From an uncultured Gemmatimonadales bacterium (GTDB taxonomy: Bacteria > Gemmatimonadota > Gemmatimonadetes > Gemmatimonadales > GWC2-71-9), in contig CAVYZY010000012.1 in NCBI GenBank assembly GCA_963773095.1, positions 123,130 through 187,129 of the forward strand: a stretch of 64,000 bases of DNA, written 5' to 3'. Positions 2,604 to 17,835 of the stretch are shown here, in pieces. The translations under genes were made by a program, and so were the position numbers. A model generated the notes under the pieces. It saw only the letters and a program-made list of their open reading frames with translations, was not told the DNA's origin and searched no databases. The first letter of the stretch is position 1. Each line of letters starts with the position of its first letter.

Positions 2604-3923
2604 ATGCGCTCCCTTCGTGCGACCGTGGTCGCATCATTGCTTGCCGCCTCGCCCCTCGTGGCCCAGGCGCCGACCCTCGTCCCCCCGGGACCGCTCACCC
2701 TCGACGAGGCGATGCGGTGGGCCTGGCAGCGCGGAGTGGCTGCCTCGGTTGCGCGGCTCAATGCCGACGTGGCCCAGTCGCGCGTCGGCCAGCGCCGCGC
2801 CGACCTGCTGCCGCAGGTACAGGGCGAGGCGAACTACTCGCGCCAGACGCTCAACCTCGATGAGTTCGGCATCCCGATCGCCACCGGCGTCACTGCGCCA
2901 TTCAACCTGTATCACTTCCGCCTCGCCGGCTCGCAGTCACTGGTCAACTTCGCCGCGATGACCCGGGTGCAGTCCGCGTCCGACTCATCGGTCGCGGCGA
3001 CGTTCGACGCGCAGTCTACCGGGAGCAATGCCGCGGCGGTGGCCGGGGTCGCGTACGTGCGGGTCCTGGGCATCGGCGAGACGATCCGCGCGCGCGTGGC
3101 CGACAGCGTGATTGCCGCCGACCTGCTGTCGCAGGCCCGCCAGCTCGCCGATGCCGGCATCAGCGCCGCAATCGACGTCACCCGCAACGAGGTCAACCTC
3201 GGCGCCGTGCGCACCCAACTGGTCGTTACCCGGAACCTGCTGTCGCGCGCCCGGCTCGACCTGGCCCGCGCCCTGAGCCTGCCGCCGGAATCGTCGATCG
3301 AACTGGCCGATTCCCTCGGCCAGGAGGACCAGCGCCTGCCCACCGACCAGGACTCGGCGGTGGCCTTTGCGAAGGATCATCGACCCGAGGTGCTGGCCGA
3401 GCAGCGCCGCACCGAGGCGGTGCGCCTCAGCCGGCGCGCGGTCGGGCAGGAGAACCTGCCCAGCGCCGGCATCGCAGGGTCGGCGCAGGAGAGCGGACAG
3501 CAGACGGACGGGCTCGCCGGAACCTGGGCCGTCCAGGTCGGGATCTCGGTGCCGATCTTCGACGGACTGCGGAGGCAGAAGCGCCGGGACGAGCAGAGCG
3601 CGCGCTACGACGCGCAGAAGCTCCGCGAGTACGACGTGACCCAGCAGGTGGACGCCGAGGCACGACAGGTCGTGCTCGACCTCGCCGCCGCCCGTGAAGA
3701 GCTCCTGGTGGCGCAGCAGCGCCTCCACCTCGCCGATCTCGAGCTCAAGCAGGCGGATGAACGTGTCTCGGCGGGTGTCGCCGGCAGCGTCGAGACGACC
3801 AATGCGCAACGCAACCTCGTGGGCGCGCGAGACGCGCTCATCCAGGCCCGGGTTTCCCTGGACATCGCCCGGATCAATTCATACCGCGCGCTCGGCGTCA
3901 TCGTGCCCGCGAACAGCCAGTGA
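2604..3923 (+). CDS. TolC-family outer membrane efflux protein
   Basis: 439 aa. Signal peptide (LLAASPLVAQAP), LTLDEAMRWA start and two coiled-coil repeat halves typical of OMF/TolC. Starts 2 nt after the tetR stop. Confidence 0.85.
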   Translation: MRSLRATVVASLLAASPLVAQAPTLVPPGPLTLDEAMRWAWQRGVAASVARLNADVAQSRVGQRRADLLPQVQGEANYSRQTLNLDEFGIPIATGVTAPFNLYHFRLAGSQSLVNFAAMTRVQSASDSSVAATFDAQSTGSNAAAVAGVAYVRVLGIGETIRARVADSVIAADLLSQARQLADAGISAAIDVTRNEVNLGAVRTQLVVTRNLLSRARLDLARALSLPPESSIELADSLGQEDQRLPTDQDSAVAFAKDHRPEVLAEQRRTEAVRLSRRAVGQENLPSAGIAGSAQESGQQTDGLAGTWAVQVGISVPIFDGLRRQKRRDEQSARYDAQKLREYDVTQQVDAEARQVVLDLAAAREELLVAQQRLHLADLELKQADERVSAGVAGSVETTNAQRNLVGARDALIQARVSLDIARINSYRALGVIVPANSQ

Positions 3924-3953
3924 CGCACCGTACTTGCACAGCGAGCCCCGATC

Positions 3954-5066
3954 ATGACTGACGTGCTGACCGACATCCCACCGGCTGCTCCAGCCCGCAC
4001 GGCATCCGCGTCGGGGCCCGAGCCCGCAACCCGTGCGGAGCGGGTTCGACTCGTAGTCATCCTGCTCGTGGTCGCCGCCGCCGCCACGTGGGGCATCCGG
4101 ACCTGGCTCGCCAGCCGGCTCGTGGTGACCAGCGACAATGCGCAGGTGGATGGCCACATCACGCCCATCGCGCCCAAGGTGCAGGCGTTCGTGAGCCGCG
4201 TGCTGGTGGAGGACAATCAGCAGGTGAAGGCCGGGGACACCCTGGTGGTACTCGACGCGCGCGACCTGCAGCTCCGTCTGGAGCAGGCCCGCGCCGACCT
4301 CGCCTCGGCCCGGGCGCAGGCGGGCAGCGGTCGCGACGCGGGCCAGGCCGCAGCGCAGCTGGCCGCCACGCAGGCGCAGGCCGCCGGTGCGGAGGCCACC
4401 GTTGCGGCCGCGGAAGCGGCAGCGCGGAAGGCGAGTGCCGACCTCGAACGCTACCGCGGGCTCGCCGCCACCAAGGTCATCGCCGCGCAGCAGCTCGATG
4501 CCGCGCAGGCCGCCAACGATGCGGCGATCGCCAACGTCGACGCGGCGCGGCGGCAGGCCACCGCGGCGAGGAGCCAGGTGGCCGCGTCCGCCGCGGCGCT
4601 CAAGGGCGCCGGTGCGCGACTGGCGGCCGCCGAGGCGGCGGTCGGCACCGCCGAGACCCAGGTGGGATATACGGTGATCACGGCACCCATCGGCGGCATC
4701 GTCGCGCACCGCCGGGTCGAGCCCGGTGAGCTGGTGCAGCCGGGACAGGCCCTGCTCTCGATCGTGCCGTCCACCAATGTCTGGGTTACCGCGAACCTGA
4801 AGGAGACCGAGCTGCAGTACGTGAAGGTCGGTGACCCGGTCGAGTTCACCGTCGATGCGTACCGCGGCATCCGGTTCAAGGGCACCGTGGAGTCGCTCAG
4901 CCCGGCCACGGGAGCGCGCTTCGCGCTGCTCCCGCCCGACAACGCGAGCGGCAACTTCACCAAGGTCGTGCAGCGCCTCCCGGTGCGCATCGCGGTACCG
5001 ACGGAGGACCCGGCGCATCCGCTGCGGCCCGGCATGTCCGTCGACGTGAGGATCCGGGTGCGGTAG
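3954..5066 (+). CDS. HlyD/EmrA-family membrane fusion protein
   Basis: 370 aa. N-terminal TM, then TSDNAQVDGHITPIAPKVQAFVSRVLVEDNQQVKAGDTLVVLD (EmrA-like lipoyl motif), a long Ala/Gln-rich coiled coil and a C-terminal beta-barrel. Confidence 0.9.
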   Translation: MTDVLTDIPPAAPARTASASGPEPATRAERVRLVVILLVVAAAATWGIRTWLASRLVVTSDNAQVDGHITPIAPKVQAFVSRVLVEDNQQVKAGDTLVVLDARDLQLRLEQARADLASARAQAGSGRDAGQAAAQLAATQAQAAGAEATVAAAEAAARKASADLERYRGLAATKVIAAQQLDAAQAANDAAIANVDAARRQATAARSQVAASAAALKGAGARLAAAEAAVGTAETQVGYTVITAPIGGIVAHRRVEPGELVQPGQALLSIVPSTNVWVTANLKETELQYVKVGDPVEFTVDAYRGIRFKGTVESLSPATGARFALLPPDNASGNFTKVVQRLPVRIAVPTEDPAHPLRPGMSVDVRIRVR

Positions 5067-5077
5067 CCCACAGCAGC

Positions 5078-6664
5078 ATGGCCATCGCGGCACTCCCCCT
5101 TCGCCTGGAGCGATCGGAAGCGGAGGTCTACCGGCACCGGTACCTCATCGCCTTCGCGGTCACGCTCGCCAGCGTCCTCGAGCTCGTCGACACGAGCATC
5201 GTGAACGTGGCCATCCCGCACATGATGGGGAACCTCGGCGCGACGCTGGAGGAAGTGGCGTGGGTCAGCACCGGCTACATCGTGGCCAACGTCATCATCC
5301 TGCCGCTCACGCCCTGGCTCGCGGCGCGCTTCGGGAGGCGGAACTACTACACCGGCTCCATCATCCTCTTTACCGTCGCCTCCTTCTTCTGCGGCAACGC
5401 ACGCAGCCTCGAGGCGCTGGTCTTCTGGCGGGTCATCCAGGGCATCGGCGGCGGCGCGCTCATCTCGACGGCGCAGGCCATCCTGTTCGACGTCTTCCCG
5501 CTGAAGGAGCGCGGCACGTCGACCGCGATCTTCGGCATGGGCGTCATGGTAGGCCCGGCGCTGGGCCCCACGCTGGGCGGCTGGATCACCGACAACTACT
5601 CCTGGCCCTGGATCTTCTACATCAACATCCCGCTGGGCATCCTGGCAGCGTACCTCACCTGGTCGTACGTGCCGGAACCGAGGTACCAGGTGCAGCAGGA
5701 CCGCGGCGTCGACTGGCTGGGGCTGCTCTTCCTCATCATGGGCGTTGGAGCGCTGCAGATCCTCCTCGAGCGCGGTGAGTCGAAGGACTGGTTCGAGTCG
5801 ACCGAGATCATCACCGAGACCGTCATTGCGGCGATCGGCATGATCGCCTTCGTATGGCACGAGCTGACCACGGAGAACCCGATGGTGAAACTGCGCGTAC
5901 TCCGGCGCCGGCAACTCGCTGTCGGGGTGGTGTTCGCCAGCATCCTCGGGTTTGCGCTCTACTCCAGCGTCTTCGCATTGCCGGTGTTCCTGCAGAACTA
6001 CCTCGGCTTCAGTGCGTGGGACACCGGCCGCGTGCTCCTTCCCGGTGCCATTGCCACCGCGGTGACGATGGCGGTGGTCGGCAGGATGGCGAACAAGGTC
6101 GACGTGCGGCCGATCATCTTCGCCGGCGTGGTGCTCTTTGCCCTCTCGATGCGGCTGCACTCGCACTTCACACTCGAGACCGGCCAAGTCGACCTGTTCT
6201 GGCCCATGATCCTCCGCGGTATCGGGATGGGGCTCATTTTCGTGCCCCTCACCGGCCTCGCCGTGGCCGGCCTCGCGCCCTCGGACATTCCGCAGGGCAC
6301 TGGCCTCTACAACCTGAGCCGGCAGCTCGGCGGAAGCTTCGGTATCGCCATCACCGCGACCATCCTGACGCACTTCCGGGAGGAGAGCCGCGAGGCGCTG
6401 CGTGCGCACGTCACGATGTACGACCAGACCACCCGCAGCTGGCTCGACATGGTGACGCAGCGCATGCTGAGCGAAACCGGCAGCCTCGTGAGCGCGCAGC
6501 AGAAGGCGCAGGCGATGCTGGCCCGGGTCATCGAGGGCCAGGCGGCCGTCATCTCCTTCGAGAAGGTCTTCTTCATCATGGGAGCGGCGTTCCTGCTGGC
6601 CACCCCGCTGCTGCTCCTGTTCAAGACGGGCCGCGTGAGCGGCGGGGGCGGCGCGGCGCACTAG
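5078..6664 (+). CDS. MFS DHA2 (EmrB/QacA) 14-TM drug efflux transporter
   Basis: 528 aa. LASVLELVDTSIVNVAIPHMMGNLGA and WLAARFGRRNYY match EmrB-family signatures. Confidence 0.9.
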   Translation: MAIAALPLRLERSEAEVYRHRYLIAFAVTLASVLELVDTSIVNVAIPHMMGNLGATLEEVAWVSTGYIVANVIILPLTPWLAARFGRRNYYTGSIILFTVASFFCGNARSLEALVFWRVIQGIGGGALISTAQAILFDVFPLKERGTSTAIFGMGVMVGPALGPTLGGWITDNYSWPWIFYINIPLGILAAYLTWSYVPEPRYQVQQDRGVDWLGLLFLIMGVGALQILLERGESKDWFESTEIITETVIAAIGMIAFVWHELTTENPMVKLRVLRRRQLAVGVVFASILGFALYSSVFALPVFLQNYLGFSAWDTGRVLLPGAIATAVTMAVVGRMANKVDVRPIIFAGVVLFALSMRLHSHFTLETGQVDLFWPMILRGIGMGLIFVPLTGLAVAGLAPSDIPQGTGLYNLSRQLGGSFGIAITATILTHFREESREALRAHVTMYDQTTRSWLDMVTQRMLSETGSLVSAQQKAQAMLARVIEGQAAVISFEKVFFIMGAAFLLATPLLLLFKTGRVSGGGGAAH

Positions 6665-6737: not shown

Positions 6738-8264
6738 ATGACGTTCCAGCAGAAACTGCTCCTCGGCTTCGGGCTCATGGTGCTCCCGGTGCTGCTCGTG
6801 GGCGCCGAGGCGATCCGCAGCAATGCCCTCGAGCGCCGGGCCCTGGAGACCCTGGGCGAGAGCCTCACGCGGACCCGGACCTACTCCGAGGTCGAGACGG
6901 CAATGTTCAACCAGAGCGAGGTGATCTGGCGTTCGCTGAGCGGCATGGAGCCGCGCGCGCGCGCGGAATTCCGGCTCAGCGGCGAGGTGGTGGACTACTG
7001 GCTCGACCGCTGGACCGCGGAACTGCAGCCGGATGAGCAGGAGCTCGCCGTGGGCGTGCGGCGCATCGAGACGGAGATCCGCACGGTGGCCGACAGCGTG
7101 TTCGCACTCGAGGACCTGGGCAAGCGCGCGGAAGCGTACACGCTGGCCAAGGGGCAGCTCAAGGAGCGGCTGCTGCCGGCCCTCACCGAACTGAACCACC
7201 AGATCTACCGGCGCGCACGCGAGTTCAGCGTCTCCCGCGCGTTCAGCCGCGTGGCCGAGATCGTGAACAGCGAGCGTACCCTGCTCTTCTGGATCCTGCT
7301 GCTCTCGGTGGCGGCCGGGTTCGGCGGCGCGTGGCTCATCGCGCGCAGCCTCGCGCGCCCCATCGGCGAGCTGCGCCAGGCCATGACTGTAGTGGGCGGC
7401 GGCGATCTCGATCACCCGATCACCCCGCGTTCGGGCGACGAGATCGGCGACCTCGCGCGAAGCTTCCAGCAGATGACGGCCAACCTGCGGCAATCACGCA
7501 CCGAGTTGGTGCACCTCAACGCGGAACTGGGGGCCAAAGTCGGCCAGCTCCAGGCGGCGCAGGCACAGCTGGTGGAGCAGGAGAAGCTCGCGTCCGTGGG
7601 CCAGATGGCCGCGGGCGTGGCCCATGGCCTCCGCAATCCACTGGCGAGCCTTCGCGCGTCCGCCCAACTTGCGCTGCGACATCCCGAAACACCCGCGGCC
7701 CGGGAGTCGCTCGAGTCGATGATCAGCGAGGTGGACCGCCTCGACAAGCGCATCACGCACCTGCTCACCTTCTCGCGCCCGGCACCGCTGCACCCGATGC
7801 GCGAGAACCTGGCGACGCTCGTGGCGGGACTCCTGCCCGCCCTCAACCGCCTCCTGCAGGACCGGGCGGTCACCTTGCGCACCGACCTGCCCCAGGACCT
7901 TCCCGACACCATGCTCGATCCGATGAAGGTGGAGCAGACGATGCACGAACTCATCGCCAACGCCCTCGACGCGATGCCGGGCGGTGGCACGCTGGGACTG
8001 GCCGCGCGCGCGAGCGCCGACAGCAGCCGGGTGATCGTGGAGATTTCCGACACCGGGAAGGGCATCCCCGAGGACGTCCTGCCATCGGTGTGCGACCCGT
8101 TCTTCACCACGCGGCCCGAGGGCACCGGCCTGGGGCTCGCGATCGCCAAGCGGTTTGTGGAGCAGAATGGCGGCACGCTGGAGATCAGCAGCACACCCGG
8201 CCGGGGCACCACGGTGCGAATCCATTTTCCGTCCGCCCCCACCGCAAACGGAGGGCACGCATGA
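6738..8264 (+). CDS. Sensor histidine kinase (two TM segments, periplasmic loop, HAMP, HisKA, HATPase)
   Basis: 508 aa. HAMP region (RPIGELRQAMTVVGGGDLDHPI...IGDLARSFQQM), H-box LASVGQMAAGVAHGLRNPL, G1 DTGKGI and G2 GTGLGL. Confidence 0.9.
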   Translation: MTFQQKLLLGFGLMVLPVLLVGAEAIRSNALERRALETLGESLTRTRTYSEVETAMFNQSEVIWRSLSGMEPRARAEFRLSGEVVDYWLDRWTAELQPDEQELAVGVRRIETEIRTVADSVFALEDLGKRAEAYTLAKGQLKERLLPALTELNHQIYRRAREFSVSRAFSRVAEIVNSERTLLFWILLLSVAAGFGGAWLIARSLARPIGELRQAMTVVGGGDLDHPITPRSGDEIGDLARSFQQMTANLRQSRTELVHLNAELGAKVGQLQAAQAQLVEQEKLASVGQMAAGVAHGLRNPLASLRASAQLALRHPETPAARESLESMISEVDRLDKRITHLLTFSRPAPLHPMRENLATLVAGLLPALNRLLQDRAVTLRTDLPQDLPDTMLDPMKVEQTMHELIANALDAMPGGGTLGLAARASADSSRVIVEISDTGKGIPEDVLPSVCDPFFTTRPEGTGLGLAIAKRFVEQNGGTLEISSTPGRGTTVRIHFPSAPTANGGHA

Positions 8265-9652
8265 GCGGCGGCACGATTCTGGTCGTCGACGACGAGCGCA
8301 CCCTCGCCCGCGCCATCCGGGGTTACCTGGCGGAGGCGGGCTATGAAGTCGAGGTGGCGGGCAACGCCGAGCAGGCGCTCGAGATGCTCGATCGACTGCG
8401 CCCCGACGTCGTCTTCACCGACGTGAAGCTGCCGGGAATGAGCGGCATCGACCTGCTGCGGAAGATCCGCGAGTTCGACGCCGCCATTTCCGTCTGCGTC
8501 ATGACGGCGTTCGGCACGATCGAGGGAGCGGTTGAGGCGGTGAAGCTCGGGGCGTTCGACTACATCAAGAAGCCGATCGACCTCGAGGAAGTGAGATTGC
8601 TCGCCGACCGCGCGCGCGAAACCTCGCAGCTGCGCCAGGAGCTGTCATACTACCGGAAGAAGGCGGCCAACGATGTCGTCATCACCGGCATCGTCGGCAC
8701 GTCCCCCGCCATGAAGGCCGTGATGGAGCGGGCCCGCCAGATCGCGGCACTCGACGAGACGCCGCCCGTGCTCATTACCGGCGAGACGGGCACCGGCAAG
8801 GGACTGGTCGCGCGCACGATCCACTCATCAGGGGCACGTGGCAGCCGGCCGTTCATCGACGTTAACTGTACGGCGCTCCCTGCCACCCTGATGGAAGCCG
8901 AGCTCTTCGGGTACGAGCGCGGCGCATTCACCGATGCCAAGGAGTCCAAGCTCGGTCTCTTCGAGGCCGCCGAGGGCGGCTTCCTCTTCCTGGATGAAGT
9001 GGGCGACATCGAGCTGGCACTGCAGGGAAAGCTGCTGCGGGCCATCGAGGACCGCACCGTGCGCCGGGTGGGCGGCATCCGGGACCGCAAGATCGACGTG
9101 CGTATCCTGGCGGCCACCAATCGCGACCTCGAGCAGGACGCCCGGCACGACCGGTTCCGGAAGGATCTCTACTTCCGGCTCGCCGTCATCCTCCTGCGGC
9201 TGCCGCCGCTCCGTGAGCGCGGCGACGACATCCCCATGCTCGCCGATCACTTCCTCAAGCACTACAGTGCGAAGTACGGCCGGGATGTTCGCCAGATCAA
9301 CGCGCAGGCCCGCGACCTCATGCGCGCCTATCCCTGGCCCGGCAACGTGCGCGAGCTGAGCCACGTCATCGAGCGCGCGGTCCTCTGGAGCCAGGGCGAC
9401 ACTCTCGACGTCGAGCACCTGTCGCTGAGCACGCCGACCACCGCCGCCCCCACCGCGGTGCCGGCCGCGCCCGGTGCGGCTGCAGCCAGCCCGGCCCCCG
9501 CCGACCCCCTGGATCTCACACAGTGGGAACGAACCCTCATTGAACGCGCGCTCTCGGAGTCGGGCGGCAACCAGACCAAGGCAGCTCAATTGCTCGGAAT
9601 CACCCGGGACACGCTCCGGTATCGGTTGAAGAAGTTCGGTATGGGTGGGTGA
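8261..9652 (+). CDS. Sigma-54-dependent response regulator (NtrC family enhancer-binding protein)
   Basis: True start is the ATG at 8261, overlapping the kinase stop (ATGA). The track ORF 7331-9652 has an out-of-frame-overlap artefact N-terminus. Receiver domain (ILVVDDE...FTDVKLPGMSG), AAA+ Walker A GETGTGKG, sigma-54 contact loop ERGAFTDA (GAFTGA variant) and C-terminal Fis-type HTH AAQLLGITRDTLRYRLKK. Confidence 0.92.
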   Translation: MSGGTILVVDDERTLARAIRGYLAEAGYEVEVAGNAEQALEMLDRLRPDVVFTDVKLPGMSGIDLLRKIREFDAAISVCVMTAFGTIEGAVEAVKLGAFDYIKKPIDLEEVRLLADRARETSQLRQELSYYRKKAANDVVITGIVGTSPAMKAVMERARQIAALDETPPVLITGETGTGKGLVARTIHSSGARGSRPFIDVNCTALPATLMEAELFGYERGAFTDAKESKLGLFEAAEGGFLFLDEVGDIELALQGKLLRAIEDRTVRRVGGIRDRKIDVRILAATNRDLEQDARHDRFRKDLYFRLAVILLRLPPLRERGDDIPMLADHFLKHYSAKYGRDVRQINAQARDLMRAYPWPGNVRELSHVIERAVLWSQGDTLDVEHLSLSTPTTAAPTAVPAAPGAAAASPAPADPLDLTQWERTLIERALSESGGNQTKAAQLLGITRDTLRYRLKKFGMGG

Positions 9653-9673
9653 GAGCACCCACCCGGGTGGGTG
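9643..9673. promoter_or_regulatory. Triple 9-mer element GGGTGGGTG-agag-CACCCACCC-GGGTGGGTG; either a terminator hairpin for the two-component operon or an activator binding site (UAS)
   Basis: Perfect 9-bp inverted repeat with a 4-nt loop that overlaps the regulator stop codon (9650-9652). A third direct copy follows immediately. A degenerate copy GGTGGGTGgcaaCACCCAACC lies at 9831-9851. Confidence 0.5.
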
Positions 9674-9781
9674 AAGAAACCCAAAATCTTTGATGAACGC
9701 AGCCACATTCCGCCCGCGACCATCTTGCCAAGTCATTGTCAGGCAATAGGTAAGCGACACGACATCGAGTGGGGTCCAATG

Positions 9782-9797
9782 CGGCACGACACCTGCC
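9782..9797 (+). promoter_or_regulatory. Sigma-54 (-24/-12) promoter upstream of pqqA
   Basis: CGGCACGacacCTGCC has GG and GC at exactly the consensus spacing of TGGCACG-N4-TTGCW. It lies about 107 nt upstream of the pqqA ATG and about 130 nt downstream of the palindrome at 9643. Confidence 0.6.
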
Positions 9798-9903
9798 ATA
9801 GTAGGGGCTGCGCCGGGAATGCACTCCCCCGGTGGGTGGCAACACCCAACCTATTTGTGAGGGCCGCGTGCAGGCCCAATTACCTCAGAGAACTGGAGCT
9901 ACC

Positions 9904-9978
9904 ATGCGTTGGACCAAGCCCGAGGCCGAGATCGTCGCCGTTACGATGGAAGTCACCGCTTACGTCGCGACCCTGTAA
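9904..9978 (+). CDS. pqqA: PQQ precursor peptide PqqA (24 aa)
   Basis: Not in the ORF track (too short). ATG at 9904 preceded by GGAG. Translation is MRWTKPEAEIVAVTMEVTAYVATL, with the conserved W-x-K-P start and the E-x-x-x-Y (EVTAY) cross-link pair. It sits directly upstream of pqqB. Confidence 0.88.
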   Translation: MRWTKPEAEIVAVTMEVTAYVATL

Positions 9979-9991
9979 GCAGCAGGACTGA

Positions 9992-10028
9992 CGCCGAGGG
10001 CTCGCGCAAGCGGGCCCTCGGCGCTTTT
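9992..10028 (+). terminator. Intrinsic terminator/attenuator hairpin between pqqA and pqqB
   Basis: CGCCGAGGGC (9992-10001) pairs with GCCCTCGGCG (10014-10023), followed by CTTTTCC. Confidence 0.65.
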
Positions 10029-10032
10029 CCAG

Positions 10033-10941
10033 GTGCAAGTCATACTGCTGGGAACGGCTGCAGGTGGCGGATTCCCGCAGTGGAATTGCTGGTGTCCCAC
10101 CTGTCGTGCTGCGCGCCTCGATCCTCGTTCGGCCCTTCCCCGATCCCAGTCATCGGCCGCCATCAGCGCCGACGGCGAGCACTGGTTCCTCCTCAACGCG
10201 TCGCCCGATGTGCGCGACCAGGTGCAGCAGCTCAACGGTCACGCGCCGGCAGGCAATCGCCACGTCCCGATCGAGGGTGTCGTCCTTACCGATGCGGAAC
10301 TGGATCACTCGCTCGGCCTGGTGCTCCTGCGGGAAGGCCGGTCGCTCCACCTGTATGCCACGGAAGCGGTCGAGCGCATGGTTACCGAGGACTCGCGGCT
10401 CCTTTCCGTGGCCAGGGCATTCGCCGATGTCCGCGTGACGCGACTGCAGGTCGGCTCCGCCACGGCCTTGACGCTGCGCGACGGCACCGATGCCGGCCTC
10501 CTCGTGGAGCCGTTCGTCGTGGCCGCCGATCCGCCGCGGTTCGCCGCGCATACGGAGGCGGGCCACACCGTCGGGCTGATCATCACCGAGCTGGAAACGG
10601 GGAAGCGCTGCGCGTACTTGCCCGGCTGCGGGGCCATCGACCACGCGTTACTTTCGCGACTCAAGAACGCGGAACTGGTGCTTTTCGACGGTACCTTCTG
10701 GTCCAACGATGAACTGATCACGCTGGGCATCGGCGAACGCACTGCCCTGCAGCTCGATCACCTGCCGATGAGCGGCAGTGAGGGCAGCCTCGAGCGCCTG
10801 CGCGCCTTGCCAAGCCGGCATCGCGTCTACGTTCATATCAACAACACGAACCCGGTACTGCTGGAGGACTCCGCGGAACGTCGCGCGGTCGAGGCAGCCG
10901 GGCTGATCATCGGGATGGACGGCATGAGGTTCGACATATGA
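10033..10941 (+). CDS. pqqB: PQQ biosynthesis protein PqqB (metallo-beta-lactamase fold)
   Basis: 302 aa, GTG start. MQVILLGTAAGGGFPQWNCWCPTC... is the characteristic PqqB N-terminus. Position between pqqA and pqqC supports the call. Confidence 0.92.
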   Translation: MQVILLGTAAGGGFPQWNCWCPTCRAARLDPRSALPRSQSSAAISADGEHWFLLNASPDVRDQVQQLNGHAPAGNRHVPIEGVVLTDAELDHSLGLVLLREGRSLHLYATEAVERMVTEDSRLLSVARAFADVRVTRLQVGSATALTLRDGTDAGLLVEPFVVAADPPRFAAHTEAGHTVGLIITELETGKRCAYLPGCGAIDHALLSRLKNAELVLFDGTFWSNDELITLGIGERTALQLDHLPMSGSEGSLERLRALPSRHRVYVHINNTNPVLLEDSAERRAVEAAGLIIGMDGMRFDI

Positions 10942-11567
10942 GCACCCGCAATCATCGCATGTGGGCCATCGCGCTCATGCTGTGCCTGGCCGCCACGTCG
11001 GTGGCGGCGCAGGACGCGCGGGGTGCCGTCATGGAACCGCCAACTGCCCCGGTCGCCGTCCTGCCCGTGGCGCTCTACACCGGGCAGGCGAACGTGCAGG
11101 AAGCGACCGACACCGCCATGGCGGCGCTCGCGGACTCGATCCTGACCCGCAAGCTCGCCGAACTGCTGGGAGACCAGCTGATCCCGCCGCCGCAGACGGC
11201 TGCTGCCGCTGTTGCGCGCGGTGACGCCTCCTGTAACGCCGTCGTGGCATGCGCACGGGCAGTGGCTCAGTCGGCCGGCGCGCGGTGGGTCGTGATGGCG
11301 AAGGTGAGCAAGACGAGTAACCTGATCTGGCTCCTGACCGGGCAGCTGACCCACGTGTCGGATGGCAAGATCGTGCTGGACGACTCGACCGAGCTCAAAG
11401 GCGAGCCCGGTGGCATGATACGCGCCGGTACCCGCATCTTCGCGGAACGCGTGGCGCGCACCGTGCGCGCGGGCGGCGTCACCACCAACTTCCCGATTGG
11501 TGCCCCTGAGGCAGCCAACTTCCCGATTGGTGCCCCTGAGGCAGCCAACACCCCGGCAGGCTCATGA
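10938..11567 (+). CDS. Hypothetical secreted/periplasmic protein inserted between pqqB and pqqC
   Basis: 209 aa. Start ATG overlaps the pqqB stop (ATGA) and its stop overlaps the pqqC ATG (ATGA). Signal peptide MWAIALMLCLAATSVAA-QD, CX5C motif (SCNAVVAC) and a C-terminal duplicated decapeptide NFPIGAPEAA. Confidence 0.7.
   Translation: MSTRNHRMWAIALMLCLAATSVAAQDARGAVMEPPTAPVAVLPVALYTGQANVQEATDTAMAALADSILTRKLAELLGDQLIPPPQTAAAAVARGDASCNAVVACARAVAQSAGARWVVMAKVSKTSNLIWLLTGQLTHVSDGKIVLDDSTELKGEPGGMIRAGTRIFAERVARTVRAGGVTTNFPIGAPEAANFPIGAPEAANTPAGS
11487..11546 (+). repeat. Perfect 30-bp tandem duplication inside the pqq-embedded ORF
   Basis: aacttcccgattggtgcccctgaggcagcc occurs twice back to back (11487-11516 and 11517-11546), encoding NFPIGAPEAA twice. 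Confidence 0.95.
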
Positions 11568-12316
11568 TGACTGAAACGCTCGTTGCCTCGGAACTGGCTT
11601 CCGCCCCCCGCGGCGCCATCCCCGTCCTGGACCGCCCCCTGAGCCCGTCAGAGCTCGAGGCGGCGCTGCGGGCCTTCCAGAGCTCGTACTACGTCGAGCA
11701 TCCATTCCACCGCGACATGTACGCCGGCAAGCTCACGCCGCGGCAGTTCCAGGGCTGGGTGGCCAACCGGCTCGCGTACCAGCGCGTGGTGCCACGCAAG
11801 GACGCGGCGATCCTTTCCAACTGTCCTGATCCGGCGGTACGCCGTGAGTGGATCCAGCGCATCGTCGATCATGATGGAACGCGCGAGGGCGAGGGCGGGA
11901 TCGAGTTGTGGATCCGCCTGGGTGTTGCGCTCGGCGTGCCCCGCGAGGAAATGGACGACGAGCGGCACGTGCTGCCGTCGGTGCGGCTGATCTGCGAATC
12001 GTACGTCTGGTTCTGCAAGTCGAAGCCGTGGGTGCAGGCCTGCGCCTCATCGCTCACCGAGCTGTTTGCGCCGAAGATCCACCAGCAGCGCATCGAGTCG
12101 TTCCCGGTCCACTATCCCTGGATCCCGCCCGAGGCGCTCGACTATTTCAAGAGCCGCCTGGTGCAGGCGCCCCGGGACGTGAAGCACGGCCTGTCCATCG
12201 TGCAGCAGCACTGCACCACGGTGGAAACCCAGCGCATGGCGTTCGAGGCGCTGGCGTTCAAGCTGGAGATGCTCTGGGCCATGATCGACACGATCTACCA
12301 TGCTTACCGCGACTAG
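11564..12316 (+). CDS. pqqC: Pyrroloquinoline-quinone synthase PqqC
   Basis: 250 aa. LSPSELEAALRAFQSSYYVEHPFHRDMYAGKLTPRQFQGWVANRLAYQ... matches PqqC-family sequence. Operon context supports the call. Confidence 0.92.
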   Translation: MMTETLVASELASAPRGAIPVLDRPLSPSELEAALRAFQSSYYVEHPFHRDMYAGKLTPRQFQGWVANRLAYQRVVPRKDAAILSNCPDPAVRREWIQRIVDHDGTREGEGGIELWIRLGVALGVPREEMDDERHVLPSVRLICESYVWFCKSKPWVQACASSLTELFAPKIHQQRIESFPVHYPWIPPEALDYFKSRLVQAPRDVKHGLSIVQQHCTTVETQRMAFEALAFKLEMLWAMIDTIYHAYRD

Positions 12317-12587
12317 CGTGCCGTCGCTCTGGCGCCTGGCGCGCGTCGAGTACGACGACGTGCGCAAGCGGCCCGTGCTCCTCTATCCAGAGGGCGCGGT
12401 GCTGCTCAATGACACCGGCGCCGCCATCCTCAAGCTGGTGGACGGGCAGCGCAGCGTGGGCGACATCGCCCGCATGCTGAGTGAGCAGTACACCGGGGCC
12501 GGCAGCGCCGACCCGACCGAGATCCTCAACGACGTGACGACCTATCTCGCCACTCTGGCCGCCCGGGAGCTGATTCGTGACCAGTGA
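12300..12587 (+). CDS. pqqD: PQQ biosynthesis peptide chaperone PqqD
   Basis: 95 aa. Typical PqqD sequence (PVLLYPEGAVLLNDTGAAILKLVDGQRSVGDIARML). Overlaps pqqC by 17 nt. Confidence 0.9.
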   Translation: MLTATSVPSLWRLARVEYDDVRKRPVLLYPEGAVLLNDTGAAILKLVDGQRSVGDIARMLSEQYTGAGSADPTEILNDVTTYLATLAARELIRDQ

Positions 12588-13668
12588 ACGTCCCACCACG
12601 CTGCTGGCGGAGCTGACGCATCGTTGCCCGCTGCATTGTCCCTACTGCTCCAATCCGCTCGACCTGGTGCGCGTGGAGCGCGAAATCTCCACCGAGGACT
12701 GGAAACGGGTCATCACCGAGGCACGGGCGCTGGGCGTGCTCCAGCTCGGCCTGTCGGGTGGCGAGCCGCTGGTGCGGAAGGACACCGAGGAACTCGCCGC
12801 GCATGCGCGGAGCGTGGGCCTCTACAGCACCCTCGTCACCTCCGGGCTCGGGCTCACCCGCCCGAGGGCCGAGAAGTTCCGCGAGGCCGGGCTCGAGCAC
12901 ATCCAGATCTCGCTGCAGGATGCCGACGACGACAACGCGGAGCGGATCGCCGGGGTGCGCTCGGTGAAGCAGAAGCGCGCGGCGGCGGCACTGGTGCGCG
13001 AGCTCGGCTTCGCCTTCTCGGTGAACGTAGTGCTGCACAAAGCCAACCTCGATCGCATCCAGCAGATCATCGACCTCGCGAGCGAGATGGGGGCCGACCG
13101 GCTCGAGCTGGCCAACACCCAGTACTACGGCTGGGGGCTGCTCAACCGCGACGCGCTCATGCCCACCCGGGAGCAGGTCGATCGTGCCTTCGAGGTCGCC
13201 GAGCGGGCGAAGCAGGCCCATCGCGGCAAGATGCAGATCATCTTCGTGCTGCCGGACTACTACGAGGAATATCCCAAGGCCTGCTACGGCGGCTGGGGCA
13301 AGGTGTACCTCGTGGTGACGCCCGACGGGAAGGTGCTGCCCTGTCATGGCGCCACGAACATCACGACGTTCGCGTACCCGAACGTGCGCGAGCATTCGAT
13401 GGAGTGGATCTGGCAGGAGTCGCCGCTGTTCAATGCCTTCCGCGGCGACAGCTGGATGAAGTCGCCTTGCTCCACCTGCGAGCGGAAGTGCGTCGACTTT
13501 GGCGGTTGCCGCTGCCAGGCCTTCGCGCTCACCGGTGACGCGGCCATGGCCGACCCGATCTGCACCCTGAGCCCGCACCACCACCTCATCGAGTCGGCGC
13601 TCGCCGACGCGAACGCGACCACGCCATTCACCTACCGCAAGCTGTCGAGCGAGCCGCAGCCAGCGTGA
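12577..13668 (+). CDS. pqqE: PqqA peptide cyclase PqqE (radical SAM/SPASM)
   Basis: 363 aa. LLAELTHRCPLHCPYCSNP carries the CxxxCxxC radical-SAM motif. C-terminal SPASM cysteines (CSTCERKCVDFGGCRCQA). Overlaps pqqD by 11 nt. Confidence 0.93.
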   Translation: MTSERPTTLLAELTHRCPLHCPYCSNPLDLVRVEREISTEDWKRVITEARALGVLQLGLSGGEPLVRKDTEELAAHARSVGLYSTLVTSGLGLTRPRAEKFREAGLEHIQISLQDADDDNAERIAGVRSVKQKRAAAALVRELGFAFSVNVVLHKANLDRIQQIIDLASEMGADRLELANTQYYGWGLLNRDALMPTREQVDRAFEVAERAKQAHRGKMQIIFVLPDYYEEYPKACYGGWGKVYLVVTPDGKVLPCHGATNITTFAYPNVREHSMEWIWQESPLFNAFRGDSWMKSPCSTCERKCVDFGGCRCQAFALTGDAAMADPICTLSPHHHLIESALADANATTPFTYRKLSSEPQPA

Positions 13669-14594
13669 GCGCGGCGGCCGTCGCGGCCGTCGGACTCGGC
13701 CGCGACTACGGCAGTACGCGCGCGCTCGACGGCCTCACCCTGCGTGTTGACCCCGGCGAACTGGTTGGCCTGCTCGGGCCGAACGGCGCCGGCAAGACCA
13801 CGGCGATGCTGCTGCTCGCAACCCTGCTGCGCCCGACCCGCGGCCGCGCCGAGGTCTTCGGGCAGGACGTGGTGCAGGCACGGCGCGCAGCCCGGCAGCG
13901 ACTGGGGCTCGTCTTCCAGGAACCCACCGTCGATCCCTTCCTCACCGTTCGCGAGAACCTCGAGTTTGCCGCTGCCCTTTCCGGGCTCGACCGCCGGCAA
14001 GCGCGCGACGCGATTGCGCTGGCGCTCACGCGCATGAGGCTCGAGCCCTTCGCCGACCGTCGCGCCCGCGAACTCTCCGGCGGATGGCGGCGACTCGCCG
14101 ACATTGCCCGCGCCACGCTCCACGCCCCCAGTCTGCTGATCCTGGATGAACCGACGGTGGGGCTCGACCCGGAGCATCGCGCCGCGCTCTGGGGTTTCCT
14201 GGAGACACTGCGACGGGACCAGGGCACCGCGGTGCTCTTTTCGACCCATTACCTGGCCGAGGCGGAGAGTGCGGACAGCGTCGTGCTCTTGGCCGGGGGC
14301 ATGGTGGTCGAGCGTGGCTCGCCGGCGGCACTGATGCGGCCGTTCGGCACGGCGTTGCTCGAGGTGGAAGGGCCAGGTGTCGACCGGCTCGTGGCCGCCA
14401 TCGAGGAGCGGCAGCTCGCGACGCTCATCGTGCGCACGCCGGCGGGATGCCGCATCGGGCTCGATGCCCACCACGATCATGCGCTCGAACTCGCCGGGTC
14501 GCATCCGGGGATCAGTCGCGCGCTCCTCCGGAGCCCGAGCCTCGAGGACGTCTACTTCGCGCGCACCGCCCCGGCGCAGGGGCGGCCCGCATGA
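13665..14594 (+). CDS. ABC transporter ATP-binding protein (ABC-2/DrrA-like exporter ATPase)
   Basis: 309 aa. GTG start overlaps the pqqE stop (GTGA). Walker A GPNGAGKTT, signature LSGGWRR, Walker B LLILDEPT. Confidence 0.9.
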   Translation: MSAAAVAAVGLGRDYGSTRALDGLTLRVDPGELVGLLGPNGAGKTTAMLLLATLLRPTRGRAEVFGQDVVQARRAARQRLGLVFQEPTVDPFLTVRENLEFAAALSGLDRRQARDAIALALTRMRLEPFADRRARELSGGWRRLADIARATLHAPSLLILDEPTVGLDPEHRAALWGFLETLRRDQGTAVLFSTHYLAEAESADSVVLLAGGMVVERGSPAALMRPFGTALLEVEGPGVDRLVAAIEERQLATLIVRTPAGCRIGLDAHHDHALELAGSHPGISRALLRSPSLEDVYFARTAPAQGRPA

Positions 14595-15382
14595 TCGCGC
14601 TCAGTGCCATCGGCGGCATCGTGCAGCGCGACCTGCGCCGCGCCGCCCGTCAGCCGAGCCGCCTCATCGGCGGCCTGGCCCGGCCCTTCGTGTGGTTGTT
14701 GCTGGTGGCGAGTGGTTACAACGCGATCGCGAACCCCGGCACCGGCAGCTCGTACCAGCAGTTCGTCTTCCCCGGCGTGATCGTGATGGCCTGCCTGTTC
14801 GGCTCGGCCCTCACCGCGGTGTCCACGGTGTACGATCGCGAGTTCGGGATGCTGCGGCTCATGCTCGCGAGTCCCGCCGGGCCGGCGGTGGTGCTGGCGG
14901 GACGGGCGCTCTCGGCCGCGGCTGTTGGACTGCTTCAGGGGCTGGTGGTACTGGCGGCGGCACCGTTCGTCATGCGAATCACGTGGGGTCAGGCCGGCGC
15001 TGCGACCACGGCCGTACTGCTCGCGTCGTGCGTCTCGGCGCTGCTCGGCCTGCTGGTGGCGGCGCGGCTCCGGTCAGTGGAAAACTTTGCCGGAATCATC
15101 AACGTGCTGCTGTTTCCCATGCTGTTCATCAGCGGCGCGCTCTATCCGGCGAGCGGGCTCCCGCCGGTGCTCCGGTGGATCGCCCGCGTGAACCCGGTGA
15201 CGCACATGGTGGAACTGGTCCGCGCAGCGCTGGGCCAGCCGACCGAGCTATCCGTGACGGGCAACCTGCTCGCCCTCGCGGCCTTCTCCGTGGCCGCTTT
15301 CCTGCTGGCGTCGCTGCTGTTCGATCCGGAGCAGCGCCTGGTCGGACGGCCGCCGAGCGCTCGCGGCGCGTCCGGACGCTAG
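14591..15382 (+). CDS. ABC-2 type transporter permease
   Basis: ATG at 14591 overlaps the ATPase stop (ATGA). About 263 aa with 6 predicted TM segments. RDLRRAARQPSRLIGGLARPFVWLLL is a typical ABC-2 permease N-terminus. Confidence 0.85.
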   Translation: MIALSAIGGIVQRDLRRAARQPSRLIGGLARPFVWLLLVASGYNAIANPGTGSSYQQFVFPGVIVMACLFGSALTAVSTVYDREFGMLRLMLASPAGPAVVLAGRALSAAAVGLLQGLVVLAAAPFVMRITWGQAGAATTAVLLASCVSALLGLLVAARLRSVENFAGIINVLLFPMLFISGALYPASGLPPVLRWIARVNPVTHMVELVRAALGQPTELSVTGNLLALAAFSVAAFLLASLLFDPEQRLVGRPPSARGASGR

Positions 15383-16191
15383 GGTTCGGTGAAGAGCGAC
15401 GGGGGACAGGTTCCGGGTGGCGGGTCGGCCCTCCGTTCGAGAACGATCTGCTGCTCCACCAGTGACCGCGCCGGGCTGCGGATGGCACCGCCCACCGGCA
15501 CGCTCGCCTCCACCGTGACGTCATGGTCATAGCGCACGGGACCGCGCACCGGATCCCAGGCGGCGATGCCACGATCGTTGAGGGTACGGGTGTATGTCGG
15601 CGTCAGCGTGTCGCCGGCCGGCGGGGAAACGGTACCCTCGCGAATGATCTGGACGCGGTAGCGCTGCAGGCTCGCGCTGTCGCTCAGCCGCTTGATCGCG
15701 AGGCTGTCGCCGCTCCGCCACTCCTCGCCGGCCTGCAGCACCCGCGGCGGCAGGCGTGGCAGCATGTCGTCGAGGGCGCTCGACAGATCGGTCACTTCGC
15801 GCACGGCTCCGGGAACGAACGGAACGACGTGAGTTGTCAGCGCGCCGTCCGGCAGGATCTCACCGCGGTAGTGTCCGCCGAGGACACCGGAGGCATCGGG
15901 CTCGACGCGGTCGCCGCCAGCGCTGCGCCAGACGCGCAGCGAATCAAACCAGGCGACGTACTCGAGTGAGGGGCTGGAGGACGAGGCCAGCGTCGCAAGG
16001 ATGAGGTCGCTGTCGCGGCCGGAGTTGGCGGTTGCCGTGCGGCCGGCGGTCTGGAGCGTGAGGTCGCTGCGAACGCTCGCGCGAAACCGGGCACAGGCGA
16101 GTTGCGTGGCAGTGTAGTCCGGTGCGGACTGCGCCGCGAGCGGTACACTCGTGGCGAGCAGGATCGCCGACCGCGCGAACGCTCTCCTCAC
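15379..16191 (-). CDS. Hypothetical secreted protein
   Basis: 270 aa. Signal peptide MRRAFARSAILLATSVPLAAQS. No family recognised. Last gene of the minus-strand wtpA-like/pruA string. Confidence 0.55.
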   Translation of the reverse strand: MRRAFARSAILLATSVPLAAQSAPDYTATQLACARFRASVRSDLTLQTAGRTATANSGRDSDLILATLASSSSPSLEYVAWFDSLRVWRSAGGDRVEPDASGVLGGHYRGEILPDGALTTHVVPFVPGAVREVTDLSSALDDMLPRLPPRVLQAGEEWRSGDSLAIKRLSDSASLQRYRVQIIREGTVSPPAGDTLTPTYTRTLNDRGIAAWDPVRGPVRYDHDVTVEASVPVGGAIRSPARSLVEQQIVLERRADPPPGTCPPSLFTEP

Positions 16192-16206
16192 GCTTCTCAG
16201 ATCCGG

Positions 16207-17835
16207 CTACTCCGCCCCCATGTACGGATAGCGATAGTCCGTGGGCGAGACGAGCGTCTCCTTGATGCTGCGGGGCGAGACCCAGCGCACCAGGTTGAGG
16301 ATCGATCCCGCCTTGTCGTTCGTGCCGCTCGCACGCGCGCCCCCGAACGGCTGCTGACCCACGACCGCTCCAGTGGGCTTGTCGTTCAGGTAGAAGTTGC
16401 CGGCGGCGTTCCGCAACACCTGGCTTGCCTCGGCCAGCGCCGCGCGGTCGCGCGCAAACACCGCTCCGGTGAGGGCGTAGGGGCTGGTGCCGTTGACCAG
16501 CTCGAGCGTCTCGCGCCACTTCCCCGCCGGGTACACGTGCACCGTCATCACCGGACCGAACAGCTCTTCGCACATGAGGCGGTACTTGGGGTCTTCGGTG
16601 GTGACCAGGGTGGGCTGGATGAACCAGCCCTCCTTGTCGTCGCATCCGCCGCCGGCGACGACCTTCACACCCTGAGCCGTCTTCGTCGCATCGAGGTAGC
16701 CCCTGATGCGCTCGAACGCTTTCCGGTCGATCACCGCACCCATGAAGTTCCGGAAATCGGCTACGTCGCCCATCCTGATGTCGGCGATCATCGCCATCAT
16801 CCGGTCGCGCACCTCGGACCAGAGCGTGTCGGGGATGTACGCCCTGGACGCGGCGCTGCACTTCTGCCCCTGGTACTCGTACGCCCCCCGTACCAGCCCC
16901 ACCGCCACCGCGGCAGGGTCGGCACTCTGGTGCGCCACGACGAAGTCCTTGCCACCGGTCTCGCCCACGATCCGCGGATACGAGACGTACTTGTCGAGCC
17001 GGCTCGCGACCTGGTGCCAGATCTGCCGGAAGACGGCCGTCGACCCGGTGAAATGTATGCCGGCGAAGTACGGCTCCTCCACCAGCGTCGCCGTGCACAT
17101 CACCGGCTCGGCAGGCACGAAGTTGATCACGCCCGGCGGCAGCCCGGCGGTTTCGAGGAGCCGGTACACGTAGTAGTTGCTCAGCAGCGCCGCGTGCGAC
17201 GGCTTCCACACCGCGGTGTTGCCCATGAGCGCCGGCGCGCCCGGCAGGTTTCCGCCGATCGCCGTGAAGTTGAATGGCGTGACCGCATAGACGAAGCCTT
17301 CGAGCGGACGGTGCTCCATCCGGTTCCACACACCGGGCGACGATTCCGGCTGCTCGCGGTAGAGGCGCTCGGCATAGGCGACGTTGAAGCGGAAGAAGTC
17401 GATGAGCTCGCACGCGCTGTCGATTTCCGCCTGGAACGCGGTCTTGCTCTGCCCCAGCATCGTGGCGCCGTTGAGCAGCGCGCGGTGCGTGGTGGCGAGC
17501 ATGTCGGCCGCGCGGAGGAACACCGCCGCGCGGTCCTCGAACTGCATCGCTGCCCACTCCCGCTGCGACGCGATCGCCGACTTCGCAGCCGCCCGCACCG
17601 TGTCGGCGGTGGCGAGGTGCGCCCGCGCGATGACGTGCCGGTGCTTGTGTGGCGACGTGACCTCGAACATGTCACCACTGCGGATTTCCTTCCCGCCGAC
17701 GATGGCCGGGATATCGGCTACCTCGCCCGACAGCCGGCCCAGCTCGGCCTTGAGCGTCGCGCGCTCGGGCGAACCCGGCGCATAGGAAAGGATCGGTTCG
17801 TTCCGCGGGGACGGGATGTTCGGAATGCCACTCAT
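16207..17835 (-). CDS. pruA: L-glutamate gamma-semialdehyde (1-pyrroline-5-carboxylate) dehydrogenase
   Basis: 542 aa. Long-form P5CDH N-terminus (PSPRNEPILSYAPGSPERATLKAEL), ALDH catalytic Glu (VGETGGKD) and Cys (EYQGQKCSAASR). Confidence 0.9.
   Translation of the reverse strand: MSGIPNIPSPRNEPILSYAPGSPERATLKAELGRLSGEVADIPAIVGGKEIRSGDMFEVTSPHKHRHVIARAHLATADTVRAAAKSAIASQREWAAMQFEDRAAVFLRAADMLATTHRALLNGATMLGQSKTAFQAEIDSACELIDFFRFNVAYAERLYREQPESSPGVWNRMEHRPLEGFVYAVTPFNFTAIGGNLPGAPALMGNTAVWKPSHAALLSNYYVYRLLETAGLPPGVINFVPAEPVMCTATLVEEPYFAGIHFTGSTAVFRQIWHQVASRLDKYVSYPRIVGETGGKDFVVAHQSADPAAVAVGLVRGAYEYQGQKCSAASRAYIPDTLWSEVRDRMMAMIADIRMGDVADFRNFMGAVIDRKAFERIRGYLDATKTAQGVKVVAGGGCDDKEGWFIQPTLVTTEDPKYRLMCEELFGPVMTVHVYPAGKWRETLELVNGTSPYALTGAVFARDRAALAEASQVLRNAAGNFYLNDKPTGAVVGQQPFGGARASGTNDKAGSILNLVRWVSPRSIKETLVSPTDYRYPYMGAE

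Follow-up and report, generated by a model that had tools for sequence, protein, structure and literature searches.

The NtrB/NtrC pair of enteric bacteria, acting at glnAp2, is the textbook sigma-54 enhancer system. FlbD of Caulobacter is a sigma-54 enhancer-binding protein (EBP) whose sites, the ftr elements, may be located 3' of the transcription start; depending on where they stand, it can activate or repress. Here we analyse a 64-kb stretch of DNA from an uncultured Gemmatimonadales bacterium (hereafter the window, in whose numbering all coordinates are given), where genes for a sensor histidine kinase and an NtrC-family EBP stand directly before pqqA, which encodes the precursor peptide of pyrroloquinoline quinone (PQQ). 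Periplasmic alcohol, sugar and methanol dehydrogenases use PQQ as their cofactor. Positions 9640-9851 very probably form the control region of the pqq operon, comprising a sigma-54 promoter served by the adjoining kinase/EBP pair.

The switching of PQQ synthesis is known for a few Proteobacteria only, by way of LuxR-type or ECF (extracytoplasmic function) regulators. In Pseudomonas, pqq is regulated by the LuxR-type response regulator AgmR/ErbR (reviewed in PMC12997753), and in Azospirillum brasilense full induction of pqqA requires the ECF sigma factor RpoE6 (PMC12826043). The only precedent that we found for sigma-54 control within PQQ-dependent metabolism is the A. brasilense PQQ alcohol dehydrogenase gene exaA, which, as related in the citing paper, depends on sigma-54 and the LuxR-type EraR (Singh et al. 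2017, cited in PMC12826043). Within the searchable literature we found no report of control of pqqA by sigma-54, rpoN or an enhancer-binding protein, and a broad survey of sigma-54 (PMC3162934) does not mention pqq. A first-pass annotation of this DNA had called such control unusual for pqq genes, and the literature that could be searched, in which we found no direct precedent, agrees with it.

The enhancer-binding protein, its putative operators and the predicted pqqA promoter

A scan with the EBP protein, taking one genome per species, yielded 80 related loci with 66-93% EBP identity. Nearly all come from metagenome-assembled genomes (MAGs) of Gemmatimonadales, and three are labelled Methylomirabilis or Methylomirabilota; the summed sequence of the related loci (874 kb) served as search space. 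pqqA lies directly 3' of the EBP gene in every locus that is not truncated by a contig end, the kinase gene lies directly 5' of the EBP gene in 73 of the 80, and pqqB-E come after pqqA. Judged by this gene order, kinase-EBP-pqqA-pqqBCDE is a conserved unit in essentially all of the 80 species-level loci, the three from Methylomirabilota included.

The -24/-12 element that had been claimed as a promoter upstream of pqqA is present in the window, with GG at 9783-9784 (-25/-24) and GC at 9795-9796 (-13/-12), and transcription is predicted to start near 9808. Its form recurs in the relatives: exactly one GGCA[CT][GA]-N5-TGC is found on the coding strand in 74 of 76 EBP-pqqA spacers, 52-128 nt before the ATG, while the two exceptional spacers carry GGTAC-N6-TGC in place of the GGCAC form. 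The motif reaches a density of 3.5 per kb in the spacers; the rest of the 874 kb has 15 matches on the two strands together, or 0.0087 per kb per strand, and the enrichment is about 400-fold. GG-N10-GC is invariant across the 76 orthologous promoters, and their alignment gives the consensus YGGCACG-N4-cTGC-N-T, in which GG, C-A and TGC are invariant and the N4 is free to vary. By these comparisons the spacer element has the conservation pattern that a working sigma-54 promoter should leave. Immediately before the -12 TGC (9793 in the window) the 76 promoters have C in 52 cases, G in 15, A in 9 and never T, and this avoidance of T may be a lineage-specific preference. We also considered the -24/-12 element as a palindromic transcription factor site (GGCA…TGCC) and rejected it, the base after TGC not being conserved. 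No further exact copy of the promoter core and no further dyad of the kind described below, either of which could mark other members of a regulon, was found in the window.

Upstream of the promoter, the EBP gene ends inside the palindromic array GGGTGGGTG-agag-CACCCACCC-GGGTGGGTG at 9643-9673, with its TGA stop codon within the array; here the strings and coordinates of the first-pass annotation were all confirmed. Its proposal that these palindromes are activator sites is backed by the conservation of upstream dyads in the relatives, but the conserved unit is another one, the 16-bp dyad TGGGTGA-N3-CACCCA, which occurs in two tandem copies, and the 9-mers of the array are the dyad core plus the flank of the window's own sub-clade. 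Allowing up to one mismatch, the 9-mer occurs 30 times in the window against 25 expected, and is thus not enriched. At the same tolerance TGGGTG-N4-CACCCA occurs three times, all inside 203 bp, where 0.14 are expected and none of 100 shuffles reaches three.

Of 77 loci, 66 have two upstream sites, and in 64 of these the sites are 17-22 bp from each other. The promoter-distal site 1 matches TGGGT-N6-ACCCA exactly in 54 of 73 cases and site 2 is more degenerate. The start of site 1 falls at -135±3 or -125±2 from the promoter anchor (-121 to -139 overall), two modes that differ by one helical turn. The motif is exclusive to this place: all 124 matches to TGGGT-N6-ACCCA in the 874 kb sit in the EBP-pqqA spacer, counting as spacer two matches in a locus (L075) with a frameshifted EBP C-terminus. 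In their number and in their constrained distance from the -24 element, within the usual range of about 80-150 bp, the palindromes resemble upstream activator sequences (UAS) for an EBP. In 31 of 76 loci the TGA within site 1 (TGGGTGA) is itself the stop codon of the EBP gene, so that the last codons of the activator (…GG*) are part of its own presumed binding site. In three loci, L079 (~7420-7880), L023 and L028, an insert of 360-950 nt separates the EBP stop from the UAS, and the L079 insert includes a (CCCGTT)n-like tandem repeat. In L075, as in L073, a frameshift near the C-terminus of the EBP in the MAG contigs removes the helix-turn-helix (HTH) from the translation, which points to an assembly error or to a pseudogene.

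Two further observations link the dyad to the EBP. In L078 (Methylomirabilota, 2133-2361) the recognition helix is divergent, GRGALRHR (GIGRGALRHRVKK) versus SRDTLRYR (GISRDTLRYRLKK) in the others, and the dyad at the UAS position is TGGCTGA-N3-CAGCCA (TGGCTGATTTCAGCCA) instead of TGGGTGA-N3-CACCCA. Helix and dyad therefore change together. L089 (574-2742) and L175 (5901-7979, minus strand) encode paralogous EBPs of 43-47% identity with an SRDxLRYR helix, each followed by a TGGGTGA-N3-CACCCA dyad, a sigma-54 promoter and a gene other than pqq. The L089 protein has a GAFTDA loop and the helix LSRDTFRYR, and its target is a SCO1/SenC copper-chaperone-like gene; the L175 protein has the helix VSRDFLRYR, with a small secreted protein as target. 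By both observations the dyad belongs with the EBP and not with pqqA, and the paralogues point to a wider EBP subfamily with a common operator. If so, the operator would mark this subfamily (SRDxLRYR helix, GAFTDA loop) and its targets, such as SCO1/SenC, could be predicted from sequence. When metagenomes were searched for the dyad together with the promoter, 120 stretches matched, of which 97 have pqqA just 3' (92 of the 97 also with an EBP tail 5'), 9 are truncated, and 13 have no pqqA. L089 and L175 are two of these 13; the other 11 also lack an adjoining EBP, most of them lying in coding sequence or appearing chance-like. The earlier proposal that the adjacent pair drives pqqA is thus strengthened from several sides, namely synteny, the promoter footprint, dyads confined to the spacer, the co-variation of helix and site, and the paralogues.

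Both proteins have the expected parts. The EBP, which a search of the window confirmed as the only one there, matches the Pfam families Response_reg (9e-31), Sigma54_activat (5e-63), AAA_lid_14 and HTH_8 (5e-15). The receiver residues are intact (DD10-11, the phospho-acceptor D53, K104), and the AAA+ domain has Walker A GETGTGKG, Walker B FLDEVG and the loop GAFTDA (ELFGYERGAFTDA). A Fis-type recognition helix, ITRDTLRYRLKKFG, and the C-terminus …KKFGMGG* follow, with the TGA stop at 9650-9652. The F and T of the canonical GAFTGA loop are intact in GAFTDA, which is present in 80 of 80 EBP orthologues and is listed among the GAFTGA variants expected to keep EBP activity, as in DVU2106 (PMC4641369). 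From its domains (receiver, sigma-54 AAA+ with Walker A and B, Fis-type HTH) the protein classifies as a group I member of the NtrC family. The kinase gene overlaps the start of the EBP gene by 4 nt and encodes two transmembrane segments around a helical extracytoplasmic domain of ~150 aa, at residues ~26-180, followed by HAMP, HisKA and HATPase_c. The sensor domain has only a faint match to 4HB_MCP_1 (E = 0.13), and its conservation profile gives no hint of a ligand. Against the NCBIfam models the EBP scores 453 bits for AtoC (cut-off 714), 410 for NtrC (559), 368 for ZraR (760) and 362 for NtrX (600), and the best match of the kinase is AtoS, with 229 bits against a cut-off of 646. Both fall well below every curated cut-off and form a separate orthologous group, the EBP being none of AtoC, NtrC, ZraR or NtrX.

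An IHF site had been proposed on the minus strand of 9683-9697. The sequence is there, with two mismatches to WATCAANNNNTTR, but it is retained only in the 93%-identical L001 and is not conserved elsewhere, and this match is probably non-functional. Across the loci, matches to WATCAANNNNTTR with up to two mismatches instead cluster at offset -41 from the promoter anchor (20 loci, plus strand), with an inverted partner at -53/-52. The columns show AA at -52/-51, TT at -46/-45, cAA at -38 to -36 and TT at -31/-30; the dyad symmetry of this AT-patterned element is weak (0.33 versus ~0.25), and in its right half it is similar to the IHF core, CAA-N4-TTR. Its window copy at 9730-9753, centred ~67 bp upstream of the predicted start, is a plausible candidate site for a bending protein.

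From the presence, conservation, constant position and exclusivity of these elements, the co-variation of helix and site, and the gene linkage, we infer the following course of activation. The membrane kinase would sense an extracytoplasmic signal and phosphorylate the EBP at D53. EBP dimers would occupy the two tandem dyads, strong at 9646-9661 and weak at 9668-9683, and the phosphorylated EBP would build the active AAA+ ring. The ~100 bp of intervening DNA would loop, possibly aided by a bending protein at 9730-9753, so that the GAFTDA loops could remodel sigma-54 RNA polymerase at 9782-9797. Transcription would then proceed from ~9808 through pqqA and in part past the pqqA hairpin into pqqB-E and the ABC transporter.

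Several points weigh against sigma-54 activation by the EBP. In the window the core GGCACG-N5-TGC occurs once, with 2.35 expected; the window alone therefore proves nothing about the promoter, and we accept the element as real because it is conserved across related loci. The window's -12 element, CTGC, departs from the TTGC of the consensus YTGGCACG-N4-TTGCW, and read-through from the kinase and EBP genes could add sigma-54-independent expression of pqqA. No RpoN box was found in the 64-kb window; the presence of rpoN in the genome is assumed from that of the EBP and from the near-universality of sigma-54 in lipopolysaccharide-containing diderm bacteria (PMC3162934). The co-variation of helix and site comes from a single divergent locus, L078, and the bimodal spacing of site 1 could reflect clade structure and not helical phasing. 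As for bending, the AT-patterned element carries no more than 0.7 bit per column, and its copy in the window is poor (9741-9753, three mismatches to WATCAANNNNTTR).

The pqqA leader and competing explanations

The palindrome GGTGGGTGgcaaCACCCAACC at 9831-9851, which had been described as a degenerate fourth copy in the leader, is present and contains a well-conserved third site. Of 77 loci, 55 have this site 3, all but two of them with its start +51 to +54 from the promoter anchor (53 of 55), and its consensus is that of the upstream sites. It is flanked by two potential RNA hairpins, P1 and P3 (Table 1). In an alignment of 54 leaders, compensatory changes affect five of the six pairs of P1 and four of the five pairs of P3; P3 is missing in some clades, and RNAalifold retained P1 alone. 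Site 3 is invariant as sequence with essentially no covariation, and its variants break the pairing. This lack of covariation, together with the consensus common to the upstream sites, leads us to read site 3 as a DNA operator: most likely it is another binding site for the same EBP, which might serve as an assembly aid or as a brake, and by the compensatory changes the leader also holds real RNA hairpins in P1 and P3.

Alternatively, the dyad at 9833-9848 could act as RNA, as the middle hairpin (P2) of a P1-P2-P3 leader concerned with mRNA stability, translation, or the sensing of a ligand or protein. We regard this as unlikely, yet the compensatory changes in P1 and P3 do point to a structural constraint on the RNA in part of the leader. 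In addition, a leader module of ~45 nt is either wholly there or wholly missing, and P2 can fold as a 6-bp tetraloop hairpin, which in the window precedes a T-rich stretch and was the only feature that a terminator scan flagged. Loci without site 3 have shorter leaders, and among those without the module another small leader palindrome, of consensus GTGGTCGACCAC, lies ~15-20 nt before the pqqA ribosome-binding site (L003, L046, L051, L053, L056, L058, L061, L062, L064 and L065). The evidence from P2 itself runs the other way: it is almost without covariation, its pairing is broken at the inner pair in 13 of 54 leaders, and it shares its consensus with the upstream sites, which are not transcribed from this promoter. 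The T-rich tail is not conserved, the whole leader folds no better than shuffled sequence (z = -0.86), and Rfam has no match for it.

If site 3 is an operator, the same EBP might stand on both sides of the promoter, with the UAS at ~-150 and an equally well conserved operator at +26 to +41 that follows a 5'-terminal RNA hairpin. We offer tentatively, as a possibility and not as our expectation, that such a promoter-straddling EBP activates from upstream and gates initiation or early elongation downstream, or forms a hexamer across the promoter, as part of a two-component switch that would be the first one devoted to PQQ biosynthesis. If true, this arrangement would be unusual for an NtrC-type protein.

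Could the palindromes be bound by a different transcription factor encoded elsewhere, for instance a repressor responsive to PQQ or to a substrate, with the EBP using other sites? A dyad copy downstream of the start is indeed in a position more typical of repressors. We nevertheless consider this improbable: the dyad accompanies the EBP subfamily even where the target is different (L089, L175) and is altered where the recognition helix is altered (L078), while its size, symmetry, strong-plus-weak tandem and distance from -24 are all typical of an NtrC-type UAS. Nor did the aligned loci contain any other conserved dyad at -170 to -80 that the EBP might use.

It is still less probable that the EBP gene has its terminator or 3'-end hairpin in the upstream palindromes, or that these are a REP-like repeat. 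The window sequence 9643-9664 does fold as a 9-bp hairpin (-26.3 kcal/mol, z = -3.2) that spans the EBP stop codon, but no U-tract follows, the stem of the relatives is only 6-7 bp, and it is the sequence that is kept rather than the pairing. Where the EBP stop is 363-950 nt away, the dyads keep their distance to the promoter and not to the stop, which excludes a terminator role. The first-pass annotation had itself named a genome-wide REP or terminator element as the finding that would overturn its proposal, and neither the rest of the window nor that of the 874 kb yielded further copies. Finally, a fortuitous -24/-12 match, with pqqA transcribed from an unrecognised sigma-70-type promoter or by kinase-EBP read-through, is hardly credible: the single match in the window is no more than chance and a scan of 9500-10100 that detected no sigma-70-like promoter is weak evidence because such promoters are poorly characterised in Gemmatimonadota, but the element stands in 74 of 76 spacers at ~400-fold enrichment, a different phylum included, and the EBP always adjoins pqqA.

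Genes and features of the locus

Table 1. Features of the pqq locus, in window coordinates
Feature	Position	Strand	Basis or remark
Sensor histidine kinase, membrane	6738-8264	+	Pfam, translation: HAMP, HisKA, HATPase_c
NtrC-family response-regulator EBP	8261-9652	+	Pfam receiver (REC), sigma-54 AAA+, HTH_8
UAS site 1, strong dyad TGGGTGAGAGCACCCA	9646-9661	.	consensus TGGGTGAtatCACCCA
UAS site 2, weaker dyad TGGGTGAAGAAACCCA	9668-9683	.	22 bp 3' of site 1
IHF-like match TTCATCAAAGATTTT	9683-9697	-	kept only in L001
AT-patterned, weakly dyad-symmetric element, AAgtcaTT…CAAtaggTA	9730-9753	+	column counts, mirror symmetry
Putative sigma-54 promoter CGGCACGacacCTGCC	9782-9797	+	GG-N10-GC spacing, footprint in orthologues
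Leader hairpin P1, CCGGG…CCCGG	9813-9832	+	~+6 to +25 of predicted transcript
Site 3, leader dyad TGGGTGGCAACACCCA	9833-9848	.	~+26 to +41
Leader hairpin P3, GGGCC-N7-GGCCC	9861-9877	+	upstream of pqqA ribosome-binding site
Ribosome-binding site GGAG of pqqA	9895-9898	+	
pqqA, PQQ precursor peptide MRWTKPEAEIVAVTMEVTAYVATL, E-x3-Y motif	9904-9978	+	
pqqA-pqqB hairpin, 14-bp GC-rich, then CTTTTCC	9992-10030	+	-42.3 kcal/mol, z = -6.4
pqqB	10033-10941	+	Pfam, synteny
DUF3280 open reading frame, 209 aa	10938-11567	+	between pqqB and pqqC
pqqC	11564-12316	+	Pfam, synteny
pqqD	12300-12587	+	Pfam, synteny
pqqE	12577-13668	+	Pfam, synteny
ABC-2 type transporter	13665-15382	+	ATPase 13665-14594, permease end 15382

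The reading frames from pqqB to pqqE overlap or abut and therefore presumably form a single operon with pqqA. A hairpin of -20 kcal/mol or stronger lies 3' of pqqA in 76 of 76 loci. It has the look of a terminator or attenuator and probably acts as the latter, determining how much pqqB-E transcript is made relative to pqqA. An Rfam scan of 9000-10600 (E ≤ 1) gave only a sub-threshold match to BjrC68 on this hairpin, at 19 bits versus 39. Among the 80 loci the DUF3280 frame is seen only in the window, L001 and L057. L041 has two pqqA genes, one with pqqB (3498-4526) 5' of the kinase and the other (7661) after the EBP, with pqqC directly next to it.

The start of the ABC-2 transporter overlaps the pqqE stop, and a transporter follows pqqE in 29 of the 80 loci. 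It resembles PedA/PedC of PQQ-alcohol-dehydrogenase systems (NCBIfam TIGR03864 and TIGR03861, both below cut-off). Past it, on the opposite strand, lie genes for an aldehyde dehydrogenase (16207-17835) and a solute-binding protein (17832-18911), and the gene set of 13665-18911 resembles the ped-type alcohol-oxidation cluster of Pseudomonas. No PQQ dehydrogenase gene was identified among the window reading frames examined. Immediately 5' of the kinase, at 2604-6664, is a tripartite efflux pump (OEP, EmrA-like adaptor, EmrB-like MFS); its MFS gene (5078-6664, Pfam) is kept at the kinase in ~28 of the 80 loci and the adaptor in ~21.

Comparison with known systems

The sequence comparisons support the view that this locus encodes a sigma-54-dependent two-component switch devoted to PQQ synthesis, one that has a defined operator, occurs across the phylum and has not been described before. 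For pqq to have its own kinase and sigma-54 activator would imply tight, signal-dependent and off-by-default control in these soil bacteria, which very likely produce PQQ only in response to a particular signal. The analysis supplies parts that can be tested, namely the 16-bp operator, the promoter, the predicted start and the sensor domain, for which alcohols, metals including lanthanides, and PQQ or apo-enzyme status are ligand candidates to seek.

Of the regulators of PQQ metabolism, AgmR/ErbR is similar in being a response regulator that links the synthesis of PQQ with the genes of alcohol oxidation, and the Ped-like ABC transporter and aldehyde dehydrogenase of Pseudomonas have counterparts nearby here as well. 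That system, however, has no sigma-54 promoter and no EBP, and its regulator gene is not beside pqqA. The exaA case, as it is cited, differs in that a quinoprotein gene and not the PQQ biosynthesis operon is regulated, and by a LuxR-type regulator instead of an NtrC-type EBP. AtoS/AtoC and ZraS/ZraR of E. coli are the nearest curated models, with the same domain order and a membrane-sensor kinase; their sensor domains are unrelated, only the kinase core aligning, and their targets are others.

The closest likeness is to NtrB/NtrC at glnAp2. In both cases a histidine kinase is paired with a receiver-AAA+-HTH_8 activator, two adjacent dyads precede a GG-N10-GC promoter by over 100 bp, and the sites are of unequal strength, suggesting cooperative binding; activation by looping is proposed here as well. 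The dyad has a 6-N4-6 layout here versus 6-N5-6 for NtrC, with the CACC/GGTG core common to both. The differences lie in the target (pqq and not nitrogen assimilation), the site sequence, the loop (GAFTDA versus GAFTGA), and the kinase, which is a membrane HAMP sensor here while NtrB is cytoplasmic and controlled by PII. A conserved site downstream of the start is also extra to the NtrC arrangement. For this putative binding site FlbD offers a possible model, although its own targets are flagellar genes. On the whole the mechanism appears to be textbook NtrC-type, with the PQQ genes as a new target and the EBP as a new group, and the conserved downstream operator might be the one feature that is unusual.

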